Source: a virus (taxonomy: Duplodnaviria > Heunggongvirae > Uroviricota > Caudoviricetes). Taken from it: a DNA stretch of 19,876 nucleotides. Below the pieces are notes generated by a model. The model did no database searches and was not told the origin of the DNA. It saw nothing but the letters and a program-made list of their open reading frames with translations. Within the stretch, counting starts at the first letter, position 1. Every line of letters begins with the position of its first letter. Positions 9,209-10,588 of the stretch are shown here, in pieces. Where the stretch lies: the IMG/VR virus record IMGVR_UViG_641736225_000038. One strand, written 5' to 3'. Made by a program: the position numbers and the translations under genes.

Positions 9209-10022
9209 ATTTAATCTTAATAATGTTTTTGAATTTTTTTGTATTGATGAATTAAGAGTGTTAACTGAGAAGTCGTTAATTCTTTCTGATATTCCTAGCG
9301 AGGAGACAAAAAGAAAGTCTGAATTTAAATTCCTTTTAACTCAGAGAGATGATACTAACTCCTTAGCAGAAAAACCAAATAAAAAAGCAAGATATTTTTA
9401 AAAAAATCAAATTGCAAATATTTATGAGGAATTGAAAGCGCAATTAATTTATCCTGAATATGATCAAGTCATTGTTTCAAGAGAACTTGAGAAAGTAGAG
9501 CAAGATATTGAATCATCGAAAGATATATTGAAAGGTATTGTTGATGCACTTGATGATAAGAAGCAATTATTAAAAGAGTTAAGTGATGAATTATATTCAA
9601 TCAGTGACAGGGAAAAATACTTATCATTACTCATTGAAAGATTTAGTCTTCTTAAAGACCAATACTTTATAGATCTACAAAGAATAGATGTTGTATCACA
9701 GGCGAATTTCTATTTAAATAATTTTGCAGATATTTATTGTGAGTTCTGTAATACACCGCAAAAAAAAGAAAATGAAATATCATATGATGATTGTTTTTTG
9801 TCGTGTAATGCAGAAAAATTGAAAATCAAAAGCCAGCTGAAAGGATTAATTGAATCAATCGGATCTAATGTTCGCGAACATGAATTAATTATGTTAAGAA
9901 AAAATGATGTTAATGAAATTTATCAATCAGAAAAAAGTGATTTTAAGACGTTAGAAGATAAAAATATAAAACAATACATTCATCTCTTGAATCACTTTAT
10001 GAATATAAAGACAATCTTTTAA
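9209..10022 (+). pseudogene. Central coiled-coil segment of the disrupted SMC-like ATPase gene (includes ORF 9432-10022)
   Basis: After removing the IS and one TAA copy, the ATPase frame continues ...NTLHKFNLNNVFEFFCIDELRVLTEKSL... to an in-frame TAA at 9399-9401, then stays open in the same frame through 9432-10019. Charged heptad-like sequence (LEKVEQDIESSKDILKGIVDALDDKKQLLKEL...) with CEFC (CxxC, zinc-hook-like) near the middle. Confidence 0.5.
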
Positions 10023-10588
10023 TGGATCACACAAAACATAGCATTCTATCTTCATTACAAGATAAAGAAGATGATGTTGACGAACTTAAATACTCCGCCG
10101 AGGACTTTGACTCCTTAACAGTAGCTGATTTGTATGATATAGAAATAGCGATGCAAGACTTTTTGAATGATATAAATTTTGAAAATTCTAAAGATAACAA
10201 AGTGCGATTTGACGAAGATACATATGACTTTAATATCAATGGGAAACGCCGAGGAATGTTTGGTAAAGGTACCCGTGCAGTAATGCATGCTATATTTACC
10301 ATTTGCTTTGCGGAATTTTTATCAAGAAAAGGGAATCCATTCATTGGATTTGTTGTGCTTGATAGTCCATTAGTGACGCACTTTGATAAAGATAGAGGGG
10401 GTTCTCTATCGGATGTTAATAGCGTCAGTCTCAGTGATTCATTTTATCACGCATTAATCAAAAGGGACTATAATTTCCAGATTGTAATTCTTGAGAATAA
10501 AGGTCCGACGTTCCAAATAAAAATTAATGATGCAAATAAAATCCATAACTTAAATAAGAATGGAAGCTCTGGTTTTTATCCTGTTTAA
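10022..10588 (+). CDS. C-terminal ATPase head segment (188 aa) with Walker B-like motif; likely 3' part of the same disrupted ATPase gene
   Basis: ...NGKRRGMFGKGTRAVMHAIFTICFAEFLSRKGNPFIGFVVLDSPLVTHFD...: signature-like G-x-G-x-R followed about 25 aa later by hydrophobic-hydrophobic-hydrophobic-hydrophobic-D (FVVLD). Starts with ATG overlapping the upstream stop (TAATG) in the -1 frame, which is also open for 20 codons upstream. Confidence 0.5.
   Translation: MDHTKHSILSSLQDKEDDVDELKYSAEDFDSLTVADLYDIEIAMQDFLNDINFENSKDNKVRFDEDTYDFNINGKRRGMFGKGTRAVMHAIFTICFAEFLSRKGNPFIGFVVLDSPLVTHFDKDRGGSLSDVNSVSLSDSFYHALIKRDYNFQIVILENKGPTFQIKINDANKIHNLNKNGSSGFYPV

Follow-up and report, generated by a model that had tools for sequence, protein, structure and literature searches.

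What kind of gene encodes an ATP-binding cassette (ABC) ATPase whose Walker A and Walker B motifs lie in separate open reading frames (ORFs)? The question is raised by an ATPase gene in a 19,876-nucleotide (nt) stretch of DNA, hereafter the window, from IMG/VR virus record IMGVR_UViG_641736225_000038. The gene is interrupted by an insertion sequence (IS), an in-frame stop codon and a change of reading frame. An earlier sequence-only reading of the window proposed either a single ancestral ATPase that decayed after inactivation by the IS or a natively split ATPase. Comparison with intact homologues and with Escherichia coli genomes established the lesions of the gene, their positions, their distribution and their order. 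The gene is very probably lmuB of a short Lamassu system located in the P4-like prophage Sp2, and its ancestral 606-residue chain, in which a coiled coil tipped by CxxC linked the Walker A and Walker B head halves, was inactivated stepwise.

Lesions of the ATPase gene

The ATPase gene is found on the plus strand of the window in four fragments. Fragment 1 (7456–7895) starts with the ATG at 7456 and comprises codons 1–146 and two bases of codon 147, including the Walker A motif (GGSDSGKT, 7555–7578). Its reading frame continues into the IS and stops at 7933–7935. The IS (7896–9205, minus strand) is an IS629/IS1203 element of the IS3 family with a length of 1310 bp, two overlapping transposase ORFs on the minus strand (8825–9151 and 7938–8828) and 25-bp imperfect terminal inverted repeats that start with TG (TGAACCGCCCCGG...TCCTGGAG). 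It is flanked by a 3-bp target duplication, TAA, at 7893–7895 and 9206–9208 and is labelled 'IS3-like element IS1203 family transposase' in RefSeq. Without the IS and one of the TAA copies, the N-terminal ORF continues in frame at position 9210 (...TLH-K-FNLNN...). Fragment 2 (9209–9398) begins with the third base of codon 147 and ends with codon 210, aligns to residues 147–210 of intact homologues and is open for 63 codons (9210–9398).

The frame of fragment 2 is terminated by the nonsense codon TAA (9399–9401) at the boundary of a T5 run (9395–9399) and an A7 run (9400–9406). The TAA codon replaces Leu211, which is conserved in all nine aligned homologues. Leu211 is encoded by TTA in Proteus and in strains LSU61, 493/89 and DEC5B and by CTG in Pantoea. 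At this site, the Proteus gene reads TTTTTTAAAAAA (TTT TTA AAA), and the window reads TTTTTAAAAAAA. Because the same codon is TTA in Proteus and TAA in the window, the stop codon is a substitution of the leucine codon (T9400A).

Fragment 3 (9402–9964, plus strand) reopens in the same frame as fragment 2 and comprises codons 212 to approximately 399, the coiled-coil arm. It contains the CxxC motif (9738–9749), whose cysteine residues, C324 and C327, are invariant in the LmuB protein alignment. The ORF that begins with fragment 3 spans 206 codons (9402–10019) and ends with TAA at 10020–10022. The true frameshift site is located inside codon 399, approximately 60 nt upstream of the TAATG sequence, in an A5 run (9960–9964) that has one A fewer than the A6 run of the intact Proteus gene (GAT-AAAAA-TAT in the window and GGT-AAAAAA-TAT in Proteus). 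In a DNA alignment, the IS-less lmuB gene of the window (1820 nt) differs in length from three intact genes (1821 nt) by a single gap at 9960–9964. With the frame switched near codon 399, the repaired protein (...EDKKYKTIHSSLESLYEYKDNLLMDH...) and the Proteus protein (...EGKKYKKIHLLLESLYEYKDNLLMDY...) can be aligned over the frame junction with no gap. The true coding frame is thereafter the −1 frame, and the middle ORF closes with 19 codons of out-of-frame noise (9965–10022, ending in …NIKQYIHLLNHFMNIKTIF and the stop codon).

Fragment 4 (10022–10588, plus strand) is a 188-codon ORF in the −1 frame that comprises codons 419–606, the C-terminal head half, and contains the Walker B motif (FVVLD-S, 10349–10366). 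Its ATG (10022–10024) overlaps the stop codon of the middle ORF (10020–10022). The resulting TAATG (10020–10024) corresponds to an in-frame Leu418-Met419 pair in the intact genes (TTA ATG in Pantoea and TTG ATG in Proteus). At a G+C content of 26–34%, the probability that a frame is open by chance is ∼6e-10 for 206 codons and ∼2e-7 for 188 codons.

Apart from the IS, lmuB is distinguished from its intact homologues by exactly two lesions, a nonsense substitution and a deletion of 1 nt. The layout described by the sequence-only reading (TAA at 9399–9401, an open frame at 9402–10019 and an ATG overlapping the stop at TAATG) is borne out, as is its first alternative, a single ATPase of about 600 residues that acquired a nonsense and a frameshift mutation, given the intact 606-residue single-chain homologues. 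It had also proposed an alignment to intact homologues to locate the lesions, and this alignment placed them at T9400A and at the A loss in 9960–9964. Its placement of the TAA codon inside the T5-A7 stretch is correct as a position, but the lesion is a substitution and not a change in homopolymer length. The frame change does not occur at TAATG, as had been assumed, because TAATG is Leu-Met read out of frame.

Assignment to a short Lamassu system

The broken ATPase gene is assigned by sequence as a remnant of lmuB, the SMC/Rad50-like ABC ATPase gene in an anti-phage system of the short Lamassu (ABC-3C) type, whose genes are ordered lmuA-lmuC-lmuB. The assignment is based on the architecture of LmuB in the reconstructed ancestor and intact homologues, the adjoining LmuC, and a LmuA protein with a variable N-terminal effector domain and a conserved C-terminal domain. 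When reconstructed as a single chain, LmuB contains Walker A (GGSDSGKT) at residues 34–41, CxxC at residues 324–327 and Walker B (FVVLDS) at residues 528–533; in the window itself, the chain is in four pieces. Short LmuB proteins are approximately 600 residues long on average and have a canonical Walker A motif and a divergent Walker B motif (hhhhD[Q/S/T/E]), and a clade with a Zn hook exists among short Lamassu systems (PMC12663957).

The lmuC gene (7005–7463, plus strand) is apparently intact and encodes ABC-3C middle component 2, as indicated by a Pfam MC2 match (104.5 bits, cut-off 26.9), by the PADLOC LmuC model (E=2.5e-36 on the window protein and E=5e-35 on the intact homologue) and by its RefSeq name, 'ABC-three component system middle component 2'. 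The lmuA gene (5999–7005, plus strand) is a pseudogene for the Lamassu effector, with an N-terminal effector domain and the C-terminal domain CTD6 of ABC-3C systems, and is divided by a 1-nt deletion into ORFs 5999–6415 and 6388–7005. The Pfam CTD6 domain scores 104 bits on 6388–7002 (cut-off 26), and the PADLOC LmuA model matches the intact Pantoea protein with E=6e-85. The PADLOC LmuB model matches an intact homologue over residues 6–605 (E=3e-117). In the window, the Walker A fragment of lmuB is matched by Pfam AAA_23 (31.9 bits), and fragment 4 is matched by Pfam DUF3732 at 23.2 bits, slightly under the 25-bit cut-off.

No NCBIfam model matched any of the three proteins encoded by lmuA, lmuC and lmuB, and PDB sequence and profile searches with LmuB yielded only marginal matches to SMC/Rad50 Walker A regions (E=0.01–0.05). 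The N-terminal 200 residues of LmuA gave no match in Pfam, NCBIfam or PDB sequence searches, and a single-sequence AlphaFold2 model of the N-terminal lmuA ORF, with a mean predicted local distance difference test (pLDDT) score of 38, is unusable. A GDKGRD...QCK pattern in the effector domain of LmuA may hint, by motif resemblance, at a PD-(D/E)xK nuclease. The intact system would have acted as described for Lamassu, with LmuB–LmuC sensing DNA ends or phage replication and freeing the LmuA effector.

Intact single-chain homologues

A homologue search with the reconstructed LmuB protein as the query identified 26 single-chain homologues of 594–612 residues that cover at least 97% of the query with 43–87% identity, and eight further, more distant LmuB homologues of 611–621 residues with 23–27% identity. 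All 34 full-length homologues are single chains. The closest named relatives are 606-residue proteins from Proteus mirabilis (87%) and Pantoea alhagi (75%), and in both intact loci, LmuA, LmuC and LmuB consist of 335, 152 and 606 residues, respectively. A separate 344-residue database protein (P0027) contains an MC2 (LmuC) domain and shares 96% identity with the first third of LmuB. It resembles LmuC fused to the N-terminal part of LmuB and probably comes from another frameshift variant of the locus.

Distribution and order of the lesions

The window derives from a chromosome of E. coli O157:H7. Among 5426 complete E. coli genomes, 309 contain the segment 9209–10620, in each case with at least 99% identity, and many O157:H7 genomes match it with 100% identity. 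Strain EDL933 is identical to the window across lmuB except that it has no IS, and the same applies to Sakai. An empty-site probe is fully matched in 305 genomes, including EDL933 and Sakai, which carry both point lesions, and an IS-junction probe is fully matched only in M1300706002, 6535NalR and 6535WT. Of the 308 locus-bearing genomes, 3 thus have the IS at this site.

Alleles were surveyed with a repaired 852-nt probe and with sampled loci. The probe found no 100% match in any of the 5426 E. coli genomes, and its best match, in the sorbitol-fermenting strain 493/89, is one gap short. In 493/89, codon 211 is TTA, which leaves the missing A as the sole break in lmuB. Strain LSU61 and the O55:H7 strain DEC5B also have TTA at Leu211 and share the missing A. 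Among the genomes examined, the TTA allele is limited to DEC5B, 493/89 and LSU61, and the nonsense allele is found in most O157:H7 genomes.

These alleles show three steps of inactivation. In the first step, one A was lost from the lmuB A6 run, now the A5 run at 9960–9964, before the split of O55:H7 and O157:H7, and one A was lost from the lmuA run at 6406–6412 in the same period, likewise before the split. In the second step, the T-to-A substitution converted Leu211 from TTA to TAA within O157:H7 after the 493/89 and LSU61 lineages diverged. The third step comprises lineage-specific lesions, including the IS629 insertion of the window, which is recent and confined to a tiny subclade. Because the frameshift is present in O55:H7, the TAA codon in most O157:H7 genomes and the IS in only 3 of 308 genomes, lmuB was dead long before the IS inserted.

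Further decay of the operon

The frameshift of lmuA maps to an A7 run (6406–6412, plus strand) that is one base shorter in the window than in intact genes; aligned lmuA DNA sequences have no other internal gap. The same frameshift is present in EDL933, Sakai, 493/89, LSU61 and the O55:H7 strain DEC5B and in every member of the lineage examined. RefSeq treats the two lmuA pieces (5999–6415 and 6388–7005) as separate proteins. Only lmuC among the genes of the operon still looks intact. As far as its sequence can tell, the operon is a neutral, decaying relic from which functional LmuB or LmuA would no longer be producible, and with both genes disrupted it would not be expected to protect against phages or plasmids.

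Other length changes are observed in individual strains. The A8 run at 9760–9767 is an A7 run in approximately one-fifth of the sampled O157:H7 records (e.g. Rafaela_II, CEC08123 and FSIS11705876), which constitutes an extra lineage-specific frameshift and could be a phylogenetic marker. FSIS11705876 has also lost one A at 9304–9308. The two early-branching strains LSU61 and DEC5B have each independently gained an A in an A6 run (9931–9936 and 9899–9904, respectively), at a distance of 30–60 nt before the A deletion that they share. Compensation of the downstream deletion by these extra bases was considered and rejected, since each altered frame reaches a TGA codon at once. Strain PV15-279 contains another IS629/IS1203 copy in the 5′ end of lmuA (equivalent to ∼5990–6030) and two independent single-base deletions, one in lmuA (6350) and the other in a T7 run (7467–7473) near the lmuB start codon.

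Alternative explanations

The interrupted frames might still yield an intact product through recoding, by programmed frameshifting, slippage at A runs or stop read-through, or the gene might be held in a phase-variable, reversible off state. Some bacteria can restore expression of a frameshifted gene by slippage at a long A run, and both frameshifts of the operon are located in poly-A runs (A5 at 9960–9964 and A7 at 6406–6412), with several other A/T runs differing in length among strains. However, efficient slippage requires a run longer than A5, reading of the sequence revealed no X_XXY_YYZ slippery heptamer in the right frame, and neither the TAA codon nor the 1.3-kb IS of the window can be bypassed. 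Switching has left no sign, as the restored A6 allele is found in none of the 5426 genomes and the observed variants add lesions and never remove one. Recoding and phase variation are very unlikely on these grounds.

A native split, in which the Walker A half, the coiled-coil arm and the Walker B half would be separate polypeptides that assemble after translation, accounts for three long open ORFs in AT-rich DNA and for an arrangement that is identical across hundreds of O157:H7 genomes. Moreover, the two halves of the Rad50 head can be produced together in vitro as individual fragments. The conservation is, however, clonal, with at least 99% identity among all E. coli matches, and the diverged homologues are all single chains of approximately 600 residues. 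The three-ORF arrangement is seen in no homologue outside the clonal lineage, and its junctions are not conserved but are sense codons in Proteus and Pantoea (TTA or CTG for Leu211 and an in-frame Leu-Met pair). In addition, the middle ORF ends with 19 out-of-frame codons, the TAA codon is absent from early-branching strains, and the partner gene lmuA is frameshifted as well. The native split, which the sequence-only reading had kept as an option, is refuted by these observations: the conserved stop/start junctions in other genomes that this reading had named as the mark of a native split are not there.

Decay triggered by the IS, with the nonsense and frameshift mutations following under relaxed selection, was the other proposal of that reading, and the presence of all three lesions together in the window agrees with it. 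The order of the lesions is the reverse. The frameshift is older than the split of O55:H7 and O157:H7, being present in DEC5B, and 305 genomes carry point lesions next to an empty site, with the IS in only 3 of approximately 308. The distribution refutes an IS-first order, which would need precise IS629 excision that restored a single TAA in all 305 genomes, an implausible course of events. Finally, sequencing or assembly errors, suggested by the position of both lesions in or beside homopolymers, are excluded because over 300 genomes, finished independently by many laboratories on different platforms and including Sakai and EDL933, have the same bases, and also by a TAA codon that is a substitution and tracks the phylogeny.

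Stepwise decay of a single-chain lmuB gene is contradicted by none of the data. Several points count against this explanation or restrict it. Loss of function is something that we infer from the sequence. The extra-A calls in LSU61 and DEC5B are in homopolymers of assemblies apparently derived from one sequencing series and could be sequencing errors. Of the two oldest lesions, either the lmuA or the lmuB frameshift may be the earlier. Recognizable defence pseudogenes are rare in P4 hotspots, at less than 1% in a 2026 survey (PMC13586616). Given that survey, the present case is atypical for a P4 setting and represents a mild exception, yet it is consistent with decay.

The P4-like satellite setting

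The operon occupies the defence hotspot between the integrase gene and delta/psu/sid of the P4-like satellite prophage Sp2 in the E. coli O55:H7/O157:H7 lineage. The interval from int to delta/psu is a known defence hotspot of P4-like elements (PMC13586616). In the window, the cargo is surrounded by the satellite core genes int (4814–5995), delta/ogr (10998–11270, minus strand), psu (11276–11827, minus strand), sid (11824–12576, minus strand), a gene for an AlpA-like helix-turn-helix (HTH) protein (13510–13770) and the alpha primase-helicase gene (14822–17212). An icd-like gene (13767–14324) and a DUF5375 gene (14542–14865) are also part of the satellite. The RefSeq annotations of EDL933 and Sakai list an integrase, ogr/Delta, a polarity suppression protein, a capsid size determination protein and a primase-helicase, and the region is labelled 'prophage Sp2, P4-like phage'.

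The satellite core genes look intact in the window, but annotations of strains CEC08123 and 10671 flag a frameshift in sid. Upstream of the satellite, an AraC-family regulator gene (3108–3851) and a partial IS3-family remnant on the minus strand (3893–4258; 'ISEc48 partial' in Sakai) mark the border with prophage Sp1. No tRNA gene is found in the window.

Meaning of the locus

The broken ATPase gene is an ordinary pseudogene that is already annotated and known through the Sakai RefSeq entry ECs_0293. New here are the identification of the system as Lamassu/ABC-3C, the position of each lesion to the base together with the chronology, and the recognition of lmuA as a second dead gene. In hundreds of O157:H7 genomes, the Prokaryotic Genome Annotation Pipeline (PGAP) reports three ORFs named 'hypothetical protein' or 'AAA family ATPase'; together they make up a single dead lmuB gene, and the two ORFs upstream are pieces of a dead lmuA gene. 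Because the lmuB and lmuA pieces are dead, this Lamassu system should not be counted in defence inventories of O157:H7. The nested lesions, from shared frameshifts through the nonsense codon to lineage-specific indels and IS629, provide a small, clean set of phylogenetic markers from O55:H7 to O157:H7, and the locus documents a defence pseudogene in a P4 hotspot, a setting where such genes are reported to be rare (PMC13586616).

The loss of Lamassu need not have been neutral. Lamassu can eliminate plasmids. Lamassu systems also restrict lambda-type phages (PMC12663957). Since lmuA and lmuB were dead before the O55:H7/O157:H7 split, these two activities mean that inactivation might have been selected. 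It is nonetheless unlikely that the loss was selected or was a precondition for the unusual build-up of lambdoid prophages in the lineage, including the Shiga toxin (Stx) prophages, and for its virulence plasmid; the evidence, which consists of the timing of the lesions, points neither way.

Comparison with known systems

The closest annotated counterpart is the same locus, ECs_0293, in prophage Sp2 of E. coli O157:H7 Sakai (NC_002695.2), where the 1820-nt span is already a single pseudogene named 'AAA family ATPase'. The Sakai sequence equals that of the window apart from IS629, which is absent there. In the Sakai annotation, Lamassu is not mentioned, and ECs_0290/0291 are not marked as the two parts of a split lmuA gene. 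The IS itself resembles other IS629/IS1203 insertion polymorphisms of O157:H7 in being a 1310-bp IS3-family element with a 3-bp duplication that varies from strain to strain. It shows nothing unusual, and its target here was a pseudogene beforehand.

The intact cassettes of Proteus mirabilis and Pantoea alhagi share the gene order and gene sizes of the window, with nucleotide identities of 88% and 76%, respectively, for lmuB and of 92% and 82%, respectively, for lmuA. Unlike those of the window, their reading frames are uninterrupted. The Pantoea cassette is located in a P4-like satellite hotspot between int and delta/psu, as in the window, and Pfam Psu, Ogr_Delta and Pox_D5 domains are found there. 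In contrast, the Proteus cassette resides in a different, non-P4 island adjoining smpB, in the neighbourhood of genes for a DUF927 protein and an rve transposase. The two sites look like the result of cassette exchange between different mobile elements.

The operon resembles short Lamassu (ABC-3C) systems, such as the Vibrio cholerae Lamassu with a Cap4 effector whose structure has been described (PMC12663957), in its three genes, which encode an effector with a conserved C-terminal domain, a middle component and an SMC/Rad50-like ABC ATPase. The likeness extends to the LmuB ancestor of approximately 600 residues, with its Walker A motif (Gx4GKT), its coiled coil with CxxC and its Walker B motif (hhhhD-S). 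It differs from these systems in that the window copy is dead, with a frameshift, a nonsense codon and an IS in lmuB and a frameshift in lmuA.

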